IMG/VR virus record: IMGVR_UViG_2529292882_000019
DNA from: a virus
Taxonomy: Duplodnaviria; Heunggongvirae; Uroviricota; Caudoviricetes
Direction: 5' to 3' (one strand)
Length of the DNA: 24,212 nucleotides
A program made the position numbers and the translations under genes. Below, one piece after another: positions 3,723-24,212 of the stretch; the stretch's first letter is position 1, and each line of letters opens with the position of its first letter. Under the pieces are notes generated by a model, which worked only from the letters and a program-made list of their open reading frames with translations, ran no database searches and had not been told where the DNA came from.

Positions 3723-5730
3723 CTGTTACCCCAAAATTTTCAAGTTTGTTTGCGATCATCATTGCAATACCCGGAATTAATGGCGCTGAGGCTATACCTG
3801 CAGGATTCGCACATAAACCGTAAACCGCCGCAATCACCACTTGTCTTTTCCAGTCGAGTTTTTCTAATGATGAAGCTGCTGCTTCGCCAGTTTCATCACT
3901 GCAATCGCGATGCGGATCGCTGCCAGCATTCTCCTTGTGTGGATGTTCAGCGCCTTCCATTTTCTCCGGCTCATTTTCCCGAACTTCAACCTGATTCTCG
4001 TCATCGAATGTTTCCTGATATATTGCGTCGCCCATCACCGCACCACAGTCAGGGCAGTTATCCCCGCCAGACTGACCGCAGGCATTGCAAACTTTTTCTA
4101 CTTCCTGTTGCGCCACTGGTTCAGGCTGTTTCGTTTCTGGCTCGTTTTGTAACGCATTTGGGCTGTTTTGTTCCGCTTTCTGGTCGTTCTGTTCCGATTC
4201 TTGTTGGTTCTGGTTCACTGAATCGCGGGTTTCAATCCCCTTCACCCATTTCGGATCATTCGGGTCGCTAATCCCCTCAACAAATTCACCACGTGATGCA
4301 GCAAGCAACTTATCGGCATCGACAGGATTTTTTGATGGAATGTTTTTCCGGGCTTCATGGAGTTCTGCCCGCAGTTCTTGATATTTCGCATCAACAGAAT
4401 TTACCTGTGACTGAGCATCCAGCGGCTGCGTGTCCTGATGATGTTCAGTTGCGTCCGGTTCCATTGTTTCAGCCTCTCCCTGTTCATCTGCCGTTGTTCC
4501 AGATGGTTGCGGTTTTTCTTCATCATCCTGTTTTCCTTCTTCTGTTACACGCTGCGGCATCGGGGCAGAGGAACGACCGCAGGCAATATCCACGATTTCC
4601 GGATCAGGGTTGGCATGATCAGTTTCAGTCAGTACTTTGTTCAGATATTCAGTGACGTGCGCGGGGGTGACCTCGATCCCAATTGGTGCTTCTTTCACGG
4701 ACGCAACCACGATGGCGCGGGAATAATCCAGCCCGCCAGGCATGGTGATGAATTTGTCGCGGAAAACAGAAAAGGGCGGTTTATTTTCAGCGATAATTTC
4801 CTCAATGCGTTTAGCGTGTGCCGGATGAAGGTTATAGATGTCCACGTCCATTGAACGGGCAAGTACGCCAGTGGCTACATCGCGTGCCAGTGACGTCAGA
4901 TCGTGGACGAAACCTTCGCCGCGATCGGTGAGGTTCCCGCCGCCAGCATTAGCACCGGAAGCCGTGCGAGTGATGCGTGAAACACGATTCCCTTTTCGCC
5001 ATTCTTTTGTCAGAAGACCGCGATCAATGTGTTCGGTATCCAGCCAGGCTGAAATGAAATTCTTAAATTCATAGGGCTGATGTTTTTTCGTGATAGAGAA
5101 AACTGCCTTAATTGCATCAGTCAGGCGGAGCAGGGCGGCATTATCCAGAGTTGTCGGTTCTGCCATGCCGCGTATGGCCAACAGCAGATTCTGGACATAG
5201 CTGTTTTCCTGATCCATCTCAAGAGCAGTAATGTGTTCGCGTTGTTCACGGGTGGCATGATGCAGGTATTTCCGATCCCCGGCCGCATACGTAAAAATGT
5301 GCAGAAGACGCTGAGTGAACCGCAAAGTGGCTACAGAGACTTCACAATCCTGGCAATCCCCGTGGGCGTCTGCCTGCGCGTTTTCTTCCTGGCCTCCCGT
5401 CAGTTTTTCAGTTTCCTGAGCATTGTCCTGATAGTGAACGTCGTCTGGCGCTGCTCCCGGTTTTAGTTCCCAGGTCATGGAGTCTTTGCTGAGTTGATAG
5501 CGTTCACTCCAGGTAAAATCGATCTCACCTTCAGGGGGAAGGTCATTAACGACAGGAAAATTTGTGGCAACAGCTTTAAAATAGTTGCTCAGTTTTTTAC
5601 CTGACTTAACGATCAGGTAGTCCAGAGTGGCACAGGTCGATTCAAAATCGTCACTTGCCCACAGGACGACGTCAGGTTCACCGGATGATTTTTTCGCTTT
5701 CCGTAACAGGAAGAGTGGTTTTGTGCTCAT
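3697..5730 (-). CDS. Large early-operon protein of unknown function, 677 aa: globular N-terminal half, long acidic Q/E/D-rich low-complexity linker, CxxC...CxxC zinc ribbon, hydrophobic C-terminal tail
   Basis: Long uninterrupted minus-strand ORF with an upstream GAGG. Its 3' end overlaps the gam start by 26 nt. Occupies the kil/cIII position upstream of gam. No family recognised from sequence. Confidence 0.7.
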
Positions 5731-14070: not shown

Positions 14071-14421
14071 TGCATAAAGGAAAAGCTACCGCAGGGCGAA
14101 CTCACCCACCGATAGCTCTTAACTGGTTGTTTGTAAAAGATAATACATAAATTGGGGCTGTGTAAAGAGGTAAGCATCGTCAGGGCAAGGGAGATGTGTT
14201 AGGCGATATTGGTAAAATTTTCGTTGAGGATAAAAACGGTTTGCGGGAAAAGGAGAGTTAAGTAGAATTGCTGCGGGTGCTTGAGGCTATCTGCCTCGGG
14301 CATGAACACCAACGGCAGATAGATAAAAGCCCCACCCGACTATAAATCGAAGTGAGGCCCCTATATGCTCGTCACATATAGATTGCCTCTTACTGACCGA
14401 AAGGTCAAGGAGAAGCAGGCT

Positions 14422-14577
14422 ATGAAGCAGCAAAAGGCGATGTTAATCGCCCTGATCGTCATCTGTTTAACCGTCATAGTGACGGCACTGGTAACGAGGA
14501 AAGACCTCTGCGAGGTACGAATCCGAACCGGCCAGACGGAGGTCGCTGTCTTCACAGCTTACGAACCTGAGGAGTAA
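14422..14577 (+). CDS. hokD: Hok/Gef-family type I toxin, 51 aa (HokD/RelF-like)
   Basis: MKQQKAMLIALIVICLTVIVTALVTRKDLCEVRIRTGQTEVAVFTAYEPEE: single TM helix plus conserved C-terminal periplasmic region of Hok toxins. Followed by a strong terminator. Confidence 0.8.
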   Translation: MKQQKAMLIALIVICLTVIVTALVTRKDLCEVRIRTGQTEVAVFTAYEPEE

Positions 14578-16817: not shown

Positions 16818-16893
<76 letters not shown>

Positions 16894-16896
16894 TAT

Positions 16897-16971
<75 letters not shown>

Positions 16972-18390: not shown

Positions 18391-18807
18391 ATGAAGTCGA
18401 AAGATGAAATTTTTGACGAAGTTCTGGGAAAAGAGGGCGGTTACGTCAATCACCCGGATGATAAAGGCGGACCGACAAAATGGGGTATTACGGAAAAAGT
18501 CGCCCGCGCTCACGGATATCAGGGCGATATGCGTGACCTGACACGCGAACAGGCGCTGGAAATCCTTGAGGCGGATTACTGGTTCGGACCACGCTTTGAT
18601 CAGGTGGCCGCATTATCCTCTGATATTGCTGCAGAGTTGTGTGATACCGGTGTGAATATGGGGCCGTCCGTAGCATCGAAAATGCTCCAACGCTGGCTGA
18701 ACGTTTTCAACCTGCAAGGCAAATTGTTCCCGGATATGGACGCAGACGGGCGTATCGGCCCCCGCACGATTAATGCACTACGGACTTATCTGCAAAAACG
18801 TGGCTGA
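18391..18807 (+). CDS. Endolysin, GH108-type N-terminal domain; probably truncated in its C-terminal peptidoglycan-binding domain by insertion of the Mu-like element at 18805
   Basis: N-terminus MKSKDEIFDEVLGKEGGYVNHPDDKGGPTKWGIT is characteristic of GH108 phage lysozymes. ORF ends at a TGA formed by the first bases of the Mu-type terminal sequence, after only about 25 aa of the expected C-terminal domain. Confidence 0.7.
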   Translation: MKSKDEIFDEVLGKEGGYVNHPDDKGGPTKWGITEKVARAHGYQGDMRDLTREQALEILEADYWFGPRFDQVAALSSDIAAELCDTGVNMGPSVASKMLQRWLNVFNLQGKLFPDMDADGRIGPRTINALRTYLQKRG

Positions 18808-18877
18808 AGCGGCGCACGAAAAACGCGAAAGCGTTTCACGATAAATGCGAAAACTTTAGCTTTCGCGCTTCAAATGA

Positions 18878-18903
18878 AACAGCAGTATTAATTACTGCTT
18901 TTT
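18878..18903 (-). terminator. Hairpin terminator downstream of mom
   Basis: Stem GCAGTA/TACTGC with 5-nt loop, U-rich 3' flank on the minus-strand transcript. Confidence 0.5.
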
Positions 18904-18919
18904 ATTCATTACATGGGGA

Positions 18920-19645
18920 TCACTTAGGGTATGGCTGAACCTTGAATAGCTTGGTATTTAGTCGCTTCCTTGCTCGCTTGTTCAGGAACCTGATGTAGCG
19001 ATACTGATTAAATTTGTGCACCACGGCACGCTCTTTATTAGCCCGTAAATACACGCCTCGTTGTCCACCGCGTTTAATCGCGTTCATCGTTATCTCGTGA
19101 TACCACTCACCATCCAGCTCGTAGAACGTGCTTTCATGGCTGCCAATAAAATCAAAATTTGACGCCTGATACACAACGCCAGCACGTCCGCAGCGTTCGT
19201 CTGCAAAAGACTGAACCCACTCCACTGACGGATACAGTAACCTTATGGTTTTCAGTGCATAACTGATGGCCCGTGATTCAGAGTTGCGGGGCATGTCGTC
19301 GTGTAGCCACATGCGGTTCAACTCCATATAGCCCCGGTTATCCGTTTCAAGCACGACACGACGACCTGAGTTGGGGTTAAGGGCATATCCCCACTGGAGA
19401 ACGCCAACCAGATCGCGTCCGCTGAATACTCCCAGGTGGAGGTAAGAGTTATTCACAAAACGGCGGGAATAGTGCTTTGTCTGAATAATTGTGCGGGCCA
19501 GCCAGCAGGATATGGTTTCAACGCGCAGCTCCTTTGAACCATAGCCAACAATCTGGCCTTCATACTCAATAACGCACGGTTTCGTCAGAATGCGTGATTT
19601 TTTCTCTTTTCCCACAATGTTTCTCCGTGGGATGCTCGCAGGCAT
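18920..19645 (-). CDS. mom: Mom-like DNA modification protein (anti-restriction adenine modification)
   Basis: ORF immediately downstream of and overlapping com, next to the Mu-type end. The ORF-track start may overestimate the N-terminus because mom starts inside com. Confidence 0.7.
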
Positions 19646-19754
19646 TCAGCATTATGATGTGACGTTTGCAACGCGGACACCTGATTTCAATGTGATCAAA
19701 GGAATCCGCCTTAAATAACAGTTTGTTGCAGTTTTTACAGCGAATTGATTTCAT
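19566..19754 (-). CDS. com: Com, zinc-finger translational activator of mom, 62 aa
   Basis: [42 protein letters not shown]... with CxxC...CxxC zinc finger. 62 aa, overlapping the mom start. Strong GGAGGTGA RBS. Confidence 0.85.
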
Positions 19755-19828
19755 CTCACCTCCTTTGCATCAATTCGCCACTATCTTAAAAAACATCATG
19801 GGTTAAGTGTGGTTATTAAGACATAATC

Positions 19829-19863
19829 GATCTGTATTACCGATCGATTTGATTGATTCGATC
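19829..19863. promoter_or_regulatory. Cluster of three GATC (Dam) sites upstream of com-mom, overlapping the gin 3' end; putative Dam/OxyR-controlled mom regulatory region
   Basis: GATC at 19829, 19842 and 19860 within 35 bp, about 75-110 bp upstream of com. Mu mom transcription is known to depend on methylation of three upstream GATC sites. Confidence 0.55.
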
Positions 19864-20430
19864 GTCGTTTTCTATATGCGTTCGTTTCGCGGGGTGTTTT
19901 TTATACAGAGTTGACAGGGCCACATCGTAGATCAATGCAACCTGCTTGCGGGGGATTCCTTGTGCTAATAAACGCCCGGCCTGCTCCCATTCCGCTTTGG
20001 TTAGTTTAGGTGGTCGCCCACCAATACGGCCTTTATTTCTGGCGGCAGCAAGTCCAGCCATCGTTCGCTCGATGATTAGTTCTCGTTCCATCTCAGCCAG
20101 GGCACCCATAACGTGGAAGAAAAAACGCCCCATTGGAGATGACGTATCAATACTGTCAGTAAGACTGCGAAAATTAATCCCTCGCTCTCGTAATTCCCCT
20201 ACGAGAGAAATCAAATGTTTCATGCTTCGCCCGAGGCGATCCAGTTTCCAGACAACAAGTGTGTCACCTTTTTGAAGGCGCTTTAAAGCGCGTTTTAATC
20301 CAGGTCTGTCTGTCCTTGTTCCGCTTAATTTATCTTCAAATATTTGTTCACATCCTGCACAAACAAGAGCGTTTCGTTGCAGGTCTGTATTCTGGTCATT
20401 TGTTGATACCCTTACATAGCCAATCAGCAC
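19837..20430 (-). CDS. gin: Gin/Pin-family serine DNA invertase, 197 aa
   Basis: N-terminal catalytic serine motif (YVRVSTNDQ) and C-terminal HTH. Adjacent to a gix-like crossover site and an invertible tail-fibre segment. Confidence 0.9.
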   Translation of the reverse strand: MLIGYVRVSTNDQNTDLQRNALVCAGCEQIFEDKLSGTRTDRPGLKRALKRLQKGDTLVVWKLDRLGRSMKHLISLVGELRERGINFRSLTDSIDTSSPMGRFFFHVMGALAEMERELIIERTMAGLAAARNKGRIGGRPPKLTKAEWEQAGRLLAQGIPRKQVALIYDVALSTLYKKHPAKRTHIENDDRINQIDR

Positions 20431-20503
20431 TCTGGATCTCCCGTTTAAAAGCGCAAATCATGCCATGCAGGCCGGAAACAGCCATTATCTAAAACCTCGG
20501 TTT
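19837..20503. repeat. Left arm of an inverted repeat of at least 667 bp (partner 23546..24212), comprising gin plus the outer half of the gix site
   Basis: Coordinates map as x to 44049-x. Identity checked at both ends of the arm and across the junction, and the two gin translations are identical. Identity stops at 20503/23546. Confidence 0.85.
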
Positions 20504-20510
20504 GCAGGAA
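20485..20510. promoter_or_regulatory. gix-like 26-bp recombination site (gin-proximal)
   Basis: TTATCTAAAACC-TC-GGTTTGCAGGAA, two mismatches to the recalled gix consensus TTATCCAAAACCTCGGTTTACAGGAA. Central TC at 20497-20498. Confidence 0.75.
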
Positions 20511-21749
20511 ACGGTAAATCAGGCTTCTGGCGCATTACAAAAAAACCAGAACGGCGCGGATATTCCTGATAAGGGTCGCTTCCTGAGTAACATAAATGTT
20601 TACAGCAAAGGCGAGGTGGATAAGAAAAAAGGAATGCGGCAGTACGCATTTAATGCGCCGTCTAATGCAGTTGGTGGAAAGTGGTATCCAGTTATTTTCC
20701 GGCGTTCCACAGGCAGCACTGGCGAGCTGGCTTCCAGAGTGATTATAACGACCACATCTGCCGGTGGTAATTACGAAATGAATAACTGCGAATTCAATGG
20801 AATGGTAATGCCTGGTGGCTGGACTGATCGTGGCTCATATGCGGCAGGTTATTTTTCGACGTATCAGACTAATGAGCGCGCAATCCATTCCATTGTAACA
20901 AGCCTTAAAGAAGATGATGTATGCAGCGTTTTTTACGTTGAAGGCAGGGCTTTTCCTGTGCGGGTTTCTGCTGAAGAAGGGCTAACGGTTATTGTTCCAA
21001 CTCAGGATTATACCGTCGGTCAAACAACATATAAGTGGGGAGCAACTAATCCCGCGACAGAAAGCACGAACGCACAAGCTATTCTGGATTTTAACAATGG
21101 GCGAGGGTTTTATTGTTCTCACTCAATATTCGGTATTAATGCCATTTTTAGCGGAAATCTGGGGATTGGAACGGCTAATGCCCTGGGTGGCAATTCAATA
21201 GTTTTAGGAGATAACGATACCGGGTTTAAACAAAATGGTGATGGGGTGCTGGATGCTTATGCTAATGGTGTGCATGTATTCCGCTTTAGAAATGGTTCAG
21301 CAATATCATTAAAGGGTATTCAGGCTGGGGAAAGTAAGTTATTCACACTTTCAAGTGCAAATACCGCTGCCCGTAATGCATCATTTAACTTGTGGGGAAA
21401 TTCGTCAAGACCAACTGTTGCAGAGCTTGGTGATGATTCAGGCTGGCATTTCTATAGTCAGCGAAATACAGATAACTCGGTGACATTTGCTGTAAACGGT
21501 CAGATACAACCAAGCAACTGGGGTAACATTGATTCCCGATATGTGAAAGATGTTCGGCTTGGTTCACAGCAATATTATGGTGTGAACAACTGGCAAACAT
21601 GGAACTTCCAGTGCCCTTCAGGTCATGTATTGTCTGGTATAAATGTTCAGGATACAGGGTCAAATTCTGCCGATAATATAGCTGGCGTTTATTACAGACC
21701 AGTTCAAAAGTATATAAATGGCACCTGGTATAATGTAGCGAGCGTTTAA
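20502..21749 (+). CDS. Tail-fibre variable C-terminal module (S'v-like); no own start codon expected
   Basis: Frame opens immediately inside the gix site (track start is TTG). Gly/Asn/Ser/Thr-rich sequence typical of receptor-binding tips. Followed by a tail-fibre assembly gene. Confidence 0.7.
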
Positions 21750-21750
21750 T

Positions 21751-22278
21751 ATGATGCACTTAAAGAACATAAAAGCGGGTAACGCTAAAACACTGGAACA
21801 GTATGAGTTAACAAAGAAGCATGGAGTCATCTGGCTTTACACTGAAGACGGGAAAAACTGGTATGAGGAAGTGAAGAACTTTCAGTCAGACACAATAAAG
21901 ATTGTTTACGATGAAAATAATATTATTGTCGCTATCACCAGAGATGCTTCAACGCTTAATCCTGAAGGTTTTAGCGTTGTTGAGGTTCCTGATATTACCT
22001 CCAGCCGACGTGCTGACGACTCAGGTAAATGGATGTTTAAGGATGGTGCTGTGGTTAAACGGATTTATACGGCAGATGAACAGCAACAACAGGCAGAATC
22101 ACAAAAGGCCGCGTTACTTTCCGAAGCGGAAAGCGTTATTCAGCCACTGGAGCGCGCTGTCAGGCTGAATATGGCGACGGATGAAGAGCGTAGCCGACTG
22201 GAAGTATGGGAACGCTACAGTGTTATGGTCAGCCGTGTGGATACGGCAAAGCCAGAATGGCCACAAAAGCCTGAGTAA
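21751..22278 (+). CDS. Tail fibre assembly protein (U'-like), 175 aa
   Basis: N-terminus [11 protein letters not shown]... typical of Tfa/U chaperones. Paralogous to the minus-strand copy at 22307..22840. Confidence 0.8.
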
Positions 22279-22306
22279 AAATTAAGGCCCGATATCGGGC
22301 CTTCTC

Positions 22307-22840
22307 TCATTCTGGTTGTTCGGGAAACGTTACTGGCAAGCGGGAAGTGTCTGTAGATTCGACTTTTTGCGCAAAGAGCATCCACTCTGTTAATTTTTGT
22401 TTATTCTCGTCGGAAATGATGCCCAGCCGTAGCTGTGAGTCCCATAGCTGGGTTTTATCCCTGACAAGTTGCAACAGGCTTTGCTTTTCATTTTCCGATT
22501 GTTGCCTCTGTTCTTCCTCGGTATAAGTTCGCTTTATCACTACGCCATCTTTGAACATCCATTTACCCGAAATGTCAGCACGGCGATTTGCTGTAATATC
22601 AGGTAATTCAACGACGCTTGCGCCTTCCGGATTAATTGCTGAAACATCCTTTTCAATACAAATAATAACGCCGTTATGGTCATAGACCATTTTCAAAGTG
22701 TCTGGCTGGAAATTCTTTTGTTCCTCATACCAGTTTTTTCCATCCTCTGAATAAAGCCATTTGATGTTAAATTGTTTCGTTAGCTGGTATTGCTCTTTTG
22801 TTTTAGGGTTGCCAGCAGTAATGTTTTTTAAGTGCATCAT
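22307..22840 (-). CDS. Tail fibre assembly protein (U-like), 177 aa
   Basis: Paralogue of the plus-strand Tfa (MMHLKNITAGN...). Convergent arrangement typical of invertible tail-fibre segments. Confidence 0.8.
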   Translation of the reverse strand: MMHLKNITAGNPKTKEQYQLTKQFNIKWLYSEDGKNWYEEQKNFQPDTLKMVYDHNGVIICIEKDVSAINPEGASVVELPDITANRRADISGKWMFKDGVVIKRTYTEEEQRQQSENEKQSLLQLVRDKTQLWDSQLRLGIISDENKQKLTEWMLFAQKVESTDTSRLPVTFPEQPE

Positions 22841-22842
22841 CG

Positions 22843-23556
22843 TTAAATACTCCCCGCGTTATACCACGTTCCATTAATGCAATACTGAATTGGTCTTGCC
22901 TGAGTTGTATCAATTAATTCGTCACGGTTCCCGTTAACTGAACCCGTAACGACATAACCTGACCTGTCAGACCAGCCGGGGCCATTCCATGTCTGAACAG
23001 ATGACAGACCGCCAAGGCGAATACCTGTAATAAACCTTGAGTTACATTCTGCCTGAGTATATGCACCAACATCTCCCGCTGAAGGTTTTCGTGTCGTGGT
23101 ATAGAAATCTGACCAACCTAATTCAAACCCATAACCATCACGAGCCGACCTGTAGGAAATGCCACCATTTTTATAATTCACACGGAATTGTACGGCAGGA
23201 CAGCTACCAGCATTTATATTAAAGTGAAGAATTAATGCAGATGCACCACCAATTAGGGCGTTATATGCACCACTATCCCAATTCCATCCAACGGATGTAT
23301 CACCATTAACAGTATTACCTGTTTGTCGGAGTGCAAATGCATTGACATTTTTGGCACTAATTGAAATATCGCTAGAACCATCAAAACCAACTCCAGCAAT
23401 TTTTCGTGCTGTTTTCAGCTTTGTTGCAGTAGCGGCATTGCCGGACAGTTCCCCAGAAAGGCCACCACTGAATGTTTGTCGATTGGTCCAGGTATTCGCC
23501 GTACTGAGTAACGGTATTTTTTCCCCGCTTGTGCCGAGTTCTCGTAAACCGAGGTT
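22843..23556 (-). CDS. Alternative tail-fibre variable C-terminal module (Sv-like); frame open from the gix site, no own start
   Basis: Hand-translation shows the minus-strand frame open from 23556 to 22843 (track shows only the GTG-initiated 112-aa part). Gly/Asn/Ser/Thr-rich tip sequence. Confidence 0.7.
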   Translation of the reverse strand, partial: NLGLRELGTSGEKIPLLSTANTWTNRQTFSGGLSGELSGNAATATKLKTARKIAGVGFDGSSDISISAKNVNAFALRQTGNTVNGDTSVGWNWDSGAYNALIGGASALILHFNINAGSCPAVQFRVNYKNGGISYRSARDGYGFELGWSDFYTTTRKPSAGDVGAYTQAECNSRFITGIRLGGLSSVQTWNGPGWSDRSGYVVTGSVNGNRDELIDTTQARPIQYCINGTWYNAGSI

Positions 23557-23564
23557 TTAGATAA
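23539..23564. promoter_or_regulatory. gix-like 26-bp recombination site (distal)
   Basis: Reverse complement reads TTATCTAAAACC-TC-GGTTTACGAGAA. Outer half-site identical to the site at 20485-20510. Confidence 0.7.
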
Positions 23565-24212
23565 TGGCTGTTTCCGGCCTGCATGGCATGATTTGCGCTT
23601 TTAAACGGGAGATCCAGAGTGCTGATTGGCTATGTAAGGGTATCAACAAATGACCAGAATACAGACCTGCAACGAAACGCTCTTGTTTGTGCAGGATGTG
23701 AACAAATATTTGAAGATAAATTAAGCGGAACAAGGACAGACAGACCTGGATTAAAACGCGCTTTAAAGCGCCTTCAAAAAGGTGACACACTTGTTGTCTG
23801 GAAACTGGATCGCCTCGGGCGAAGCATGAAACATTTGATTTCTCTCGTAGGGGAATTACGAGAGCGAGGGATTAATTTTCGCAGTCTTACTGACAGTATT
23901 GATACGTCATCTCCAATGGGGCGTTTTTTCTTCCACGTTATGGGTGCCCTGGCTGAGATGGAACGAGAACTAATCATCGAGCGAACGATGGCTGGACTTG
24001 CTGCCGCCAGAAATAAAGGCCGTATTGGTGGGCGACCACCTAAACTAACCAAAGCGGAATGGGAGCAGGCCGGGCGTTTATTAGCACAAGGAATCCCCCG
24101 CAAGCAGGTTGCATTGATCTACGATGTGGCCCTGTCAACTCTGTATAAAAAACACCCCGCGAAACGAACGCATATAGAAAACGACGATCGAATCAATCAA
24201 ATCGATCGGTAA
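23546..24212. repeat. Right arm of the inverted repeat; reaches the window end, so its true extent is unknown
   Basis: Reverse complement of 19837..20503. Confidence 0.85.
23619..24212 (+). CDS. gin: Second, identical copy of the gin invertase gene in inverted orientation
   Basis: Translation is identical to the gin copy at 19837..20430. Lies within the inverted repeat 23546..24212. Confidence 0.85.
   Translation: MLIGYVRVSTNDQNTDLQRNALVCAGCEQIFEDKLSGTRTDRPGLKRALKRLQKGDTLVVWKLDRLGRSMKHLISLVGELRERGINFRSLTDSIDTSSPMGRFFFHVMGALAEMERELIIERTMAGLAAARNKGRIGGRPPKLTKAEWEQAGRLLAQGIPRKQVALIYDVALSTLYKKHPAKRTHIENDDRINQIDR

Follow-up and report, generated by a model that had tools for sequence, protein, structure and literature searches.

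A second gin gene at the end of a draft scaffold: a probable assembly artefact over a Mu-type invertible segment

Mu-type and P1-type invertible segments and the present locus

The closest described system is that of phage Mu (NC_000929; Muvirus), in which an invertible segment of 3.0 kb, G, lies between two inverted 26-bp gix sites and holds Sv and U opposed to U' and S'v. A second point of reference is the C segment of phage P1 and its invertase Cin, an invertible tail-fibre segment with long inverted repeats (about 0.6 kb); these repeats form part of the segment and code for fibre sequence, and cin stands outside it in a single copy. Given the P1 repeats, arms of such length have in principle a precedent, but the arms described here differ from those of P1 in lying outside the gix sites and in being made of the invertase gene itself.

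The window, by which we mean the whole stretch of DNA analysed (24,212 nt), comes from scaffold JH768573.1 (996,185 bp) of the NCBI draft assembly GCA_000261385.1, which an exact look-up with its truncated lysozyme protein identified. Both edges of the window are stop codons (that of intR at base 1 and that of gin at base 24212), which indicates trimming to gene limits. Its right-hand part contains the following features.

18391-18807, plus strand: GH108 endolysin gene of a Rac-like host prophage, cut short by the Mu insertion (Pfam Glyco_hydro_108 and PG_binding_3)
18805-18865, minus strand: right end (attR) of the Mu-like prophage, reverse-complemented, an exact match to the final 60 nt of Mu NC_000929
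18920-19645, minus strand: mom (Pfam PF25680 Mom; annotated Mom in related records)
19566-19754, minus strand: com (Pfam PF10122 Zn_ribbon_Com)
19837-20430, minus strand: gin, left (canonical) copy, in the Mu order G-gin-com-mom-attR (Resolvase and HTH_7; identity to Mu Gin)
19837-20503, no strand: left arm of the inverted repeat, from 19822 if the last 15 nt of the scaffold are counted (repeat search and base comparison)
20485-20510, no strand: gix-left, TTATCTAAAACC-TC-GGTTTGCAGGAA, crossover core at 20497-20498 (comparison with the relative L007 and with Mu gix)
20511-21749, plus strand: Sv, variable C-terminal part of the tail-fibre gene S, collinear with the C-terminal part of the 586-aa S of L007
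21751-22278, plus strand: U, tail-fibre assembly protein (Pfam Caudo_TAP)
22307-22840, minus strand: U', alternative tail-fibre assembly protein (Pfam Caudo_TAP)
22843-23544, minus strand: S'v, alternative variable fibre part (from its translation)
23539-23564, no strand: gix-right, reverse complement TTATCTAAAACC-TC-GGTTTACGAGAA, core at 23551-23552, identical to gixR of L007
23546-24212, no strand: right arm of the inverted repeat, reaching 24227, the last base of JH768573.1, beyond the window (base comparison)
23619-24212, plus strand: gin, right (extra) copy, at the scaffold terminus, 100% identical to the left copy

The insertion leaves an endolysin of 138 aa in place of 181, the stop codon TGA (18805-18807) being supplied by the Mu end, and in an alignment with the intact gene in L003 the two sequences part after 18804. 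The Mu terminus begins with its terminal TG, and the transposase-binding repeats lie within it. Because the BLAST hits for lysozyme and for Mu overlap by about 13 nt, we considered whether the Rac/Mu join might itself be chimeric. This was rejected: the alignment gives a clean Mu terminus at 18805, the same terminus is shared by three assemblies, in each of which it meets another host flank, and the overlap appears to be chance similarity. Pattern scans of viral contigs and of genome contigs returned no exact match to the junction between the Rac lysozyme gene and the Mu end. A Logan contig (L006) that seemed to share the insertion does not; its lysozyme gene is intact, and the contig simply happens to end at that codon.

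Likeness to Mu is close on the gin side. The Gin encoded here, a small serine recombinase of the Gin/Hin/Cin/Pin invertase group, is identical to that of Mu at 192 of 193 residues and has 4 additional C-terminal residues, and it matches the Mu Gin structures PDB 3UJ3 (E = 3.5e-125) and 4M6F (also about 1e-125). The attR-mom-com-gin block (18805-20566) is 97.1% identical to Mu, the gin region about 97% at the nucleotide level, and over mom-com-gin-G the element is 93.5% identical to Shigella phage SfMu. The likeness of the gin region is indirect evidence for a putative Fis-dependent recombinational enhancer within the 5' part of gin. Inside the segment two opposed Caudo_TAP genes lie between open Sv and S'v frames, the content of a Mu-type segment. 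Gene callers split S'v, and an in-frame stop was suspected there and rejected; S'v reads without interruption from gix to the stop codon at 22843-22845 (233 codons plus stop). Sv here is unrelated to that of Mu, with which 20567-21686 shares no nucleotide match, and for S'v the match is partial (to 23341). What sets SfMu and the Escherichia coli Mu-like prophages apart from this element is solely the insertion site and the duplicated terminal gin of JH768573.1. Where that second gin stands Mu has Sc, the constant 5' part of the fibre gene, a difference that we ascribe to assembly for the reasons set out below.

The inverted repeat and the end of the scaffold

Base-by-base comparison gives an exact inverted repeat of 667 nt, 19837-20503 against 23546-24212, without a mismatch and far beyond chance. 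A complete gin open reading frame of 197 codons (Pfam Resolvase and HTH_7) lies within each arm, at 19837-20430 on the minus strand and at 23619-24212 on the plus strand, which bears out a sequence-only reading that had reported a repeat of at least 667 bp with a whole gin on each side. A repeat-finding program drew the arms somewhat wider, at 19837-20510 and 23539-24212 (674 nt); the 7 bases that lie inward of the exact arms differ at 3 positions and are the inner half-sites of gix.

As that reading also noted, the repeat reaches the last base of the window. In the scaffold it goes further: JH768573.1 terminates 15 nt beyond the window, hence 15 nt after the stop codon of the right gin, and those 15 nt prolong the repeat, with Ns absent. 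Counted to this point, and in window-equivalent coordinates, the repeat is 19822-20503 against 23546-24227, with 682 of 682 positions identical, and the right arm stops at base 996,185, the final base of JH768573.1. The second gin is thus without an independent far flank. Since the repeat runs to the last base of the scaffold, it is the scaffold end, and no biological boundary, that fixes where the arm stops.

The second gin was correctly placed where the constant part of the tail-fibre gene would be expected to read into the segment. Sc is absent from JH768573.1, Sv has no upstream constant part there, and gin lies on both sides of G. As to which copy is extra, the left one has its 5' end beside gix and leads on to com, mom and the Mu right end, exactly the Mu-type layout; the record does contain a second gin, and it is the left copy that is canonical and the right, terminal copy that is additional. 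We attribute the loss of Sc to the path taken in assembly, because a relative that is 99.97% identical (L007) possesses Sc and encodes an S of 586 aa.

Perfect identity of the arms would also suit a very recent event in the organism itself, such as a local inverted duplication (foldback) of gin, with or without com and mom, fixed in the strain and produced when replication switched template or when Gin recombined sister chromosomes. As this explanation would have it, the arms do end at gix on their inner side. Against it, recombination topology suggests that sister exchange at inverted gix sites would create an unresolvable inverted chromosome dimer, which should not become the consensus; no Sc would be left to express either fibre gene; it demands loss or displacement of the remainder of the Mu prophage; and the only boundary that the arm possesses is the scaffold end. 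We consider such a duplication very improbable.

The gix sites and their two junctions

The sequence-only reading had the gin copies flanking the segment instead of the canonical short inverted repeats. This did not hold. Canonical 26-bp gix sites, each with 12-bp half-sites around a 2-bp core, are present in inverted orientation at 20485-20510 and 23539-23564, and they differ from Mu gix (TTATCCAAAACCTCGGTTTACAGGAA) at 1-3 positions, gix-left at 2 of the 26 and gix-right at 3.

The composition of these sites is informative. In L007 the base corresponding to 20490 is C in the gixL on the Sc side and T in the site on the gin side. In the window, gix-left is a hybrid in which the gin-side outer half (T at 20490) is joined to the inner half from the Sv side, and this composition is just what a Gin crossover at the central TC yields, the junction expected in the G(-) state. 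The right-hand site is the ordinary, unrecombined gin-proximal junction of the G(+) state. Both junctions share the gin-side outer half-site, while on the inner side each has a different end of G; the two are alternative states of one gin-proximal gix site. The hybrid site is also indirect evidence that the Gin switch of this Mu-like prophage was working in the culture that was sequenced.

Taken by themselves, however, the junction sequences do not separate the readings, because a Gin-mediated rearrangement between two identical copies of Mu gives the same hybrid gix. One could envisage a large chromosomal inversion in which gixL and gixR of two identical, directly oriented Mu-like prophages, which could stem for example from replicative transposition, are exchanged by Gin or by homologous recombination. 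Its end points would be mom-com-gin-gix-G-gix-gin-com-mom, represented by this scaffold end, and a reciprocal Sc-G-Sc, and it predicts the hybrid gix-left and the 100%-identical arms that are seen. Invertases of this family do find non-canonical partners: in L014 the DNA is inverted between gixR and a gix-like site in the baseplate J gene, with an overlap of 8 nt, too short for a graph artefact. In L033 and L081 two diverged invertases flank a fibre segment. Such an inversion nevertheless requires a second copy of Mu, of which we see no sign. The contig is continuous across unique Rac sequence and the Mu end, an argument for only one copy of Mu, and G occurs once in GCA_000261385.1, as judged by an exact look-up of the U protein. 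Furthermore, an assembler of the short-read or 454 era would be expected to collapse identical 37-kb copies and not to write out both gin arms, the scaffold end falls within an arm, and none of the best-matching complete E. coli genomes has the arrangement. We regard a chromosomal inversion as decidedly unlikely, and a real rearrangement of any kind as only a little less so.

Related assemblies and the origin of the second gin

A near-identical relative is L007 (GCA_028020935.1), an E. coli Mu-like prophage that is at least 99.9% identical to the present element from attR to Sc and has the canonical order Sc-gix-G-gix-gin-com-mom-attR with a single gin. Window positions 20485-24212 correspond to 8735-12462 of L007 with 1 mismatch in 3,728 nt, the T for C at 20490, and positions 18803-20503 correspond to L007 11796-13496 in reverse complement, where 2 of 1,701 nt mismatch; these stretches have in common only the 19 nt around the gix core. 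The window here amounts to the G+gin block of L007 joined to its gin-com-mom-attR block in flipped orientation, with the switch point within the 26-bp gix.

Other assemblies come apart at the same place. In L009, L010 and L011 the G segment (at least 99.97% identical) is a stand-alone contig of about 3.0 kb, equivalent to window positions 20491-23558, 20505-23537 and 20512-23537, respectively, so that all three break at or within the gix sites, which, like the hybrid site, would point indirectly to inversion of the segment. The L009 contig ends, on both sides, one base before the C/T position that separates the Sc-side flank from the gin-side flank, as expected if reads join both flanks to both ends of G. 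L047 contains three invertase blocks, 100% identical and in alternative orientations, with a single N where they are joined, and is a second example of the same class of artefact. Where these four records have breaks or an N-join, JH768573.1 has no break or N and shows instead a terminal inverted duplication.

Elsewhere gin is single. The exact 197-aa Gin occurs in 2,538 blocks of the collection, and each of the 10 loci inspected has one gin followed by com and mom, the full canonical Mu tail-fibre/G-segment layout being present in 8 of them. A match was obtained in 1,563 complete E. coli records; query coverage reached at least 80% in one only, where the layout is canonical, and among the best 25 of the 1,563 none had both gin arms spanned by one match.

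We conclude that the second gin is very probably an assembly artefact over an ordinary, flipping Mu-like G segment. Of the three possibilities raised from the sequence alone, namely an inversion-duplication, an assembly artefact and an unusual element architecture, the artefact is favoured because the duplicate occupies the terminal 682 nt of a draft scaffold, because the two junctions are two states of one gix and because Gin is single-copy at the 10 loci; an unusual architecture found no support. A single Mu-like prophage would have transposed into the GH108 lysozyme gene of the Rac-like prophage, and the true plus-strand order would be attR-mom-com-gin-gix-(G: Sv U U' S'v)-gix-Sc-tail genes. 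Flipping of G by Gin in the lysogen would then yield a culture with G(+) and G(-) molecules, whose reads tie gin to both ends of G. One gin is unable to join both ends of G on one molecule; a mixed population allows both. The assembler may have passed from gin into G through a G(-)-type junction, left through a G(+)-type junction and entered gin again, and its extension would have halted after 682 nt, the reach of reads anchored in G, where the scaffold ended. Because such a path re-enters gin, the second gin would be the same DNA used again and not a second locus. The scaffold end, the two junction states, the near-identical canonical relative and the breaks in other assemblies are observed; that both orientations were in this read set, and that the assembler behaved in this manner, we infer.

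The remaining possibility is a conserved alternative architecture in which two invertase genes naturally bracket an invertible fibre segment. L033 and L081, with their divergent invertase pairs around a fibre-tip/chaperone segment of 1.7-1.9 kb, lend it some substance, although both are degraded P2-like tail modules, not Mu-like ones, and their invertase copies are just 83-84% identical, one being a pseudogene. The element studied here is 97% identical to Mu from attR through gin and 99.97% identical to its canonical relative, and 88 of the 92 loci in the invertase survey have a single invertase. An architecture of this sort is, in our estimation, extremely improbable for JH768573.1.

The gin-G-gin record is thus most likely not a real feature, and the biology beneath it is most likely the textbook Gin switch of Mu. 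For curation, this means that JH768573.1 ends in a re-used stretch, and that prophage calls and gene counts made from it carry a phantom gin and miss the tail-fibre constant region. Were the arrangement real, it would be a natural case in which a phage invertase had remodelled the chromosome of its host; no evidence here requires that. Long perfect inverted repeats met in scans of other genomes should first be checked for an arm at a contig end and for an invertase and recombination sites at the inner ends. An observation that pulls the other way is that fibre segments with an invertase on either side are real in the relatives L033 and L081, where the copies have diverged.

Two gin copies at a scaffold end

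As a sequence observation the inverted repeat is confirmed. A repeat search placed its arms at 19837-20510 and 23539-24212; direct comparison gave an exact match of 667 nt (19837-20503 with 23546-24212), and in the 7 bases beyond it on the inner side the arms are mismatched at three positions. The sequence-only reading had described a repeat of at least 667 bp, reaching the last base of the window and holding an entire gin in each arm, and this description stands: the right arm ends at 24212, and both gin copies are complete. The encoded protein is identical to phage Mu Gin at 192 of 193 residues, carries four additional C-terminal residues, and matches the Gin crystal structures 3UJ3 (E = 3.5e-125) and 4M6F (E = 9.1e-124). 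Between the arms lie Sv, U and U′ (both Caudo_TAP), and an open S′v frame.

Genes of the mom-com-gin block and the second gin
18920-19645, minus strand: mom
19566-19754, minus strand: com
19837-20430, minus strand: left gin, complete 197-codon reading frame, Resolvase and HTH_7 domains
23619-24212, plus strand: right gin, complete 197-codon reading frame, Resolvase and HTH_7 domains

Read from attR, the gene order of the window is that of Mu (G-gin-com-mom-attR), and the attR-mom-com-gin block is 97.1% identical to Mu. Since the left gin sits in this order, it is the canonical copy; the right gin is therefore the extra one, occupying the position of Sc, the constant part of fibre gene S, as had been proposed.

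No flanking sequence belongs to the right gin alone. The last 15,822 bases of the window are identical to JH768573.1, a 996,185-bp scaffold of the NCBI draft assembly GCA_000261385.1, which extends 15 bases past the window and then ends, without Ns. Window 19822-19836 is their reverse complement; since they continue the repeat, its full length is 682 nt, with the outer limit set by the scaffold end. To the left, the scaffold continues for about 972 kb. Base 1 of the window is the stop of intR (minus strand) and base 24212 the stop of gin (plus strand), which suggests that gene boundaries determined where the window was cut.

Crossover sites and the origin of the second copy

The junctions were compared with L007 (GCA_028020935.1), which carries a near-identical E. 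coli Mu-like prophage of canonical layout: baseplate genes, then S (586 aa), U, U′, S′v, a single gin, com and mom, followed by host DNA. The window matches it in two pieces: 20485-24212 differs from L007 8735-12462 at 1 of 3,728 nt, and 18803-20503 differs from the reverse complement of L007 11796-13496 at 2 of 1,701 nt. The pieces overlap only at 20485-20503, within the 26-bp Gin crossover site, gix.

Crossover sites
20485-20510: gix-left, TTATCTAAAACC-TC-GGTTTGCAGGAA
23539-23564: gix-right, reverse complement TTATCTAAAACC-TC-GGTTTACGAGAA
Phage Mu, for comparison: TTATCCAAAACC-TC-GGTTTACAGGAA

The outer half-site in L007 reads TTATCC on the Sc side, as against TTATCT on the gin side. Gix-left combines the gin-side T (20490) with the Sv-side inner half; its sequence is that of the hybrid which Gin yields when it crosses over at the central TC, and it is therefore a G(-)-state junction, whereas gix-right is the ordinary G(+)-state junction. 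Both junctions are apparently genuine and, with a single gin, would come from two different molecules.

In a culture containing both orientations of G, reads would connect either end of G with gin and likewise with Sc. An assembly path could then run into G from gin and out of G back into gin, and we infer that the source assembler in this way re-entered DNA it had placed before, for 682 nt. Three other, unrelated draft or Logan assemblies contain this G segment with at least 99.97% identity; in each it makes up a contig by itself, about 3.0 kb long, that ends at or inside gix.

Window equivalents of the stand-alone G contigs
20491-23558: L009
20505-23537: L010
20512-23537: L011

Such contigs are the graph break expected if the reads hold two orientations. 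L009 ends one base before the C/T position (20490; mirror 23559), the first difference between the Sc-side and gin-side flanks, a stopping point expected if both flanks attach to both ends of G in the reads. Stand-alone G contigs ending at or inside gix may serve as a useful sign that inversion was active in a sequenced culture.

We consider it very probable that the double gin is a terminal assembly artefact, caused by a Mu Gin/G switch that is active and otherwise matches the textbook. An assembly artefact, a real rearrangement and an unusual architecture had all been offered initially, and the scaffold end and the two junction states favor the first over the others. The same sequence, hybrid gix included, would result if gixL of one Mu copy had truly undergone inversion with gixR of a second, identical copy in direct orientation, and invertases do use odd partners. 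In L014:1456-5936 (ENA metagenome scaffold ERZ28604099), compared with the canonical locus L019, a block running from the middle of the baseplate gene J through Gp48 and Sc is inverted and now adjoins gin. Its breakpoints overlap by no more than 8 nt (AACGGAGG) and fall on a sequence resembling gix within J. It looks as if Gin had really inverted the DNA between gixR and this secondary site, which destroys the baseplate gene. Inversion between two Mu copies, however, requires a second copy, whereas the contig leads from unique Rac DNA past attR with no interruption, G occurs once in the source assembly, and the right arm stops only at the scaffold end; we regard this origin as improbable. A local foldback seems less probable still.

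Frequency of double invertase loci

The collection indexes the exact Gin protein of the window in 2,538 blocks. All 10 places among the matches listed have one gin, with com-mom after it, and 8 of them show the full canonical layout; L014 carries its larger inversion, and L015 and L017 are IS-disrupted Shigella remnants. The last two, chromosomal loci (CP026777, CP000034; 1-7523), retain gin-com-mom and an identical Gin protein, with IS elements in place of the G segment and tail genes. Although 1,563 complete E. coli records match 18800-24212, query coverage is at least 80% in only one, a canonical record, and no match among the 25 best rows spans both gin arms. The phage records matched are all canonical, and a census of loci with Gin relatives found a single invertase in 88 of 92. 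To a conserved two-invertase architecture we give the least credence of all.

The census exceptions show that real double-invertase loci do exist, but with diverged copies and in another phage type. In degraded P2-like tail modules, the IMG/VR contigs L033 (2202-5231) and L081 (4432-7555) each have a fibre-tip/chaperone segment of 1.7-1.9 kb between two divergently transcribed invertase genes (83-84% DNA identity), without a constant fibre part reading into the segment. Next after the right-hand invertase comes a 274-aa GIY-YIG gene that the two loci share, and the left copy of L033 has an in-frame stop. Recombination between the gix sites of two separate elements may have given rise to these loci. 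L047:1-9746 (IMGVR_UViG_2695420821_000010), with three 100%-identical invertase-bearing blocks in alternating orientation and a lone N at 3875, precisely at a block join, is another assembly product, a scaffold in which an invertible P2-like fibre region was strung together in its alternative orientations.

The Mu insertion in the Rac-like prophage

From 1 to about 18,380 the window is a Rac-like lambdoid prophage with intR, xis, RalR/RalA, recET-type genes, a replication module, hok/sok, two tRNAs, holins and a GH108 lysozyme. The prophages are nested (18391-18865), the Mu-like one lying inside the GH108 endolysin gene of the other. That gene is broken at 18804/18805 by the terminal TG of the Mu right end, and over the next 60 nt the sequence agrees exactly with the final 60 nt of phage Mu. 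By alignment, the Mu terminus adjoins three unrelated flanks in three assemblies, and the intact lysozyme gene continues differently there; the break is a genuine Mu-type transposition junction, a chimeric join being ruled out by the terminus common to three flanks and the divergence of the intact gene. The endolysin is shortened from 181 to 138 aa, at the end of its PG_binding_3 region, with the Mu terminal TGA as its new stop. The C-terminus of the truncated protein is unique, and an exact search with all 138 residues led to scaffold JH768573.1. The insertion site recurs in none of the collection's complete E. coli genomes.

RNAs of the Rac-like prophage
1557-1735: RalA antitoxin sRNA
14275-14424: sok antisense RNA
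16818-16971: tRNA-Thr(TGT) and tRNA-Gly(TCC)

The two tRNAs are prophage-borne and lie upstream of the lysis genes; like RalA and sok, they are ordinary Rac-type accessory RNAs.
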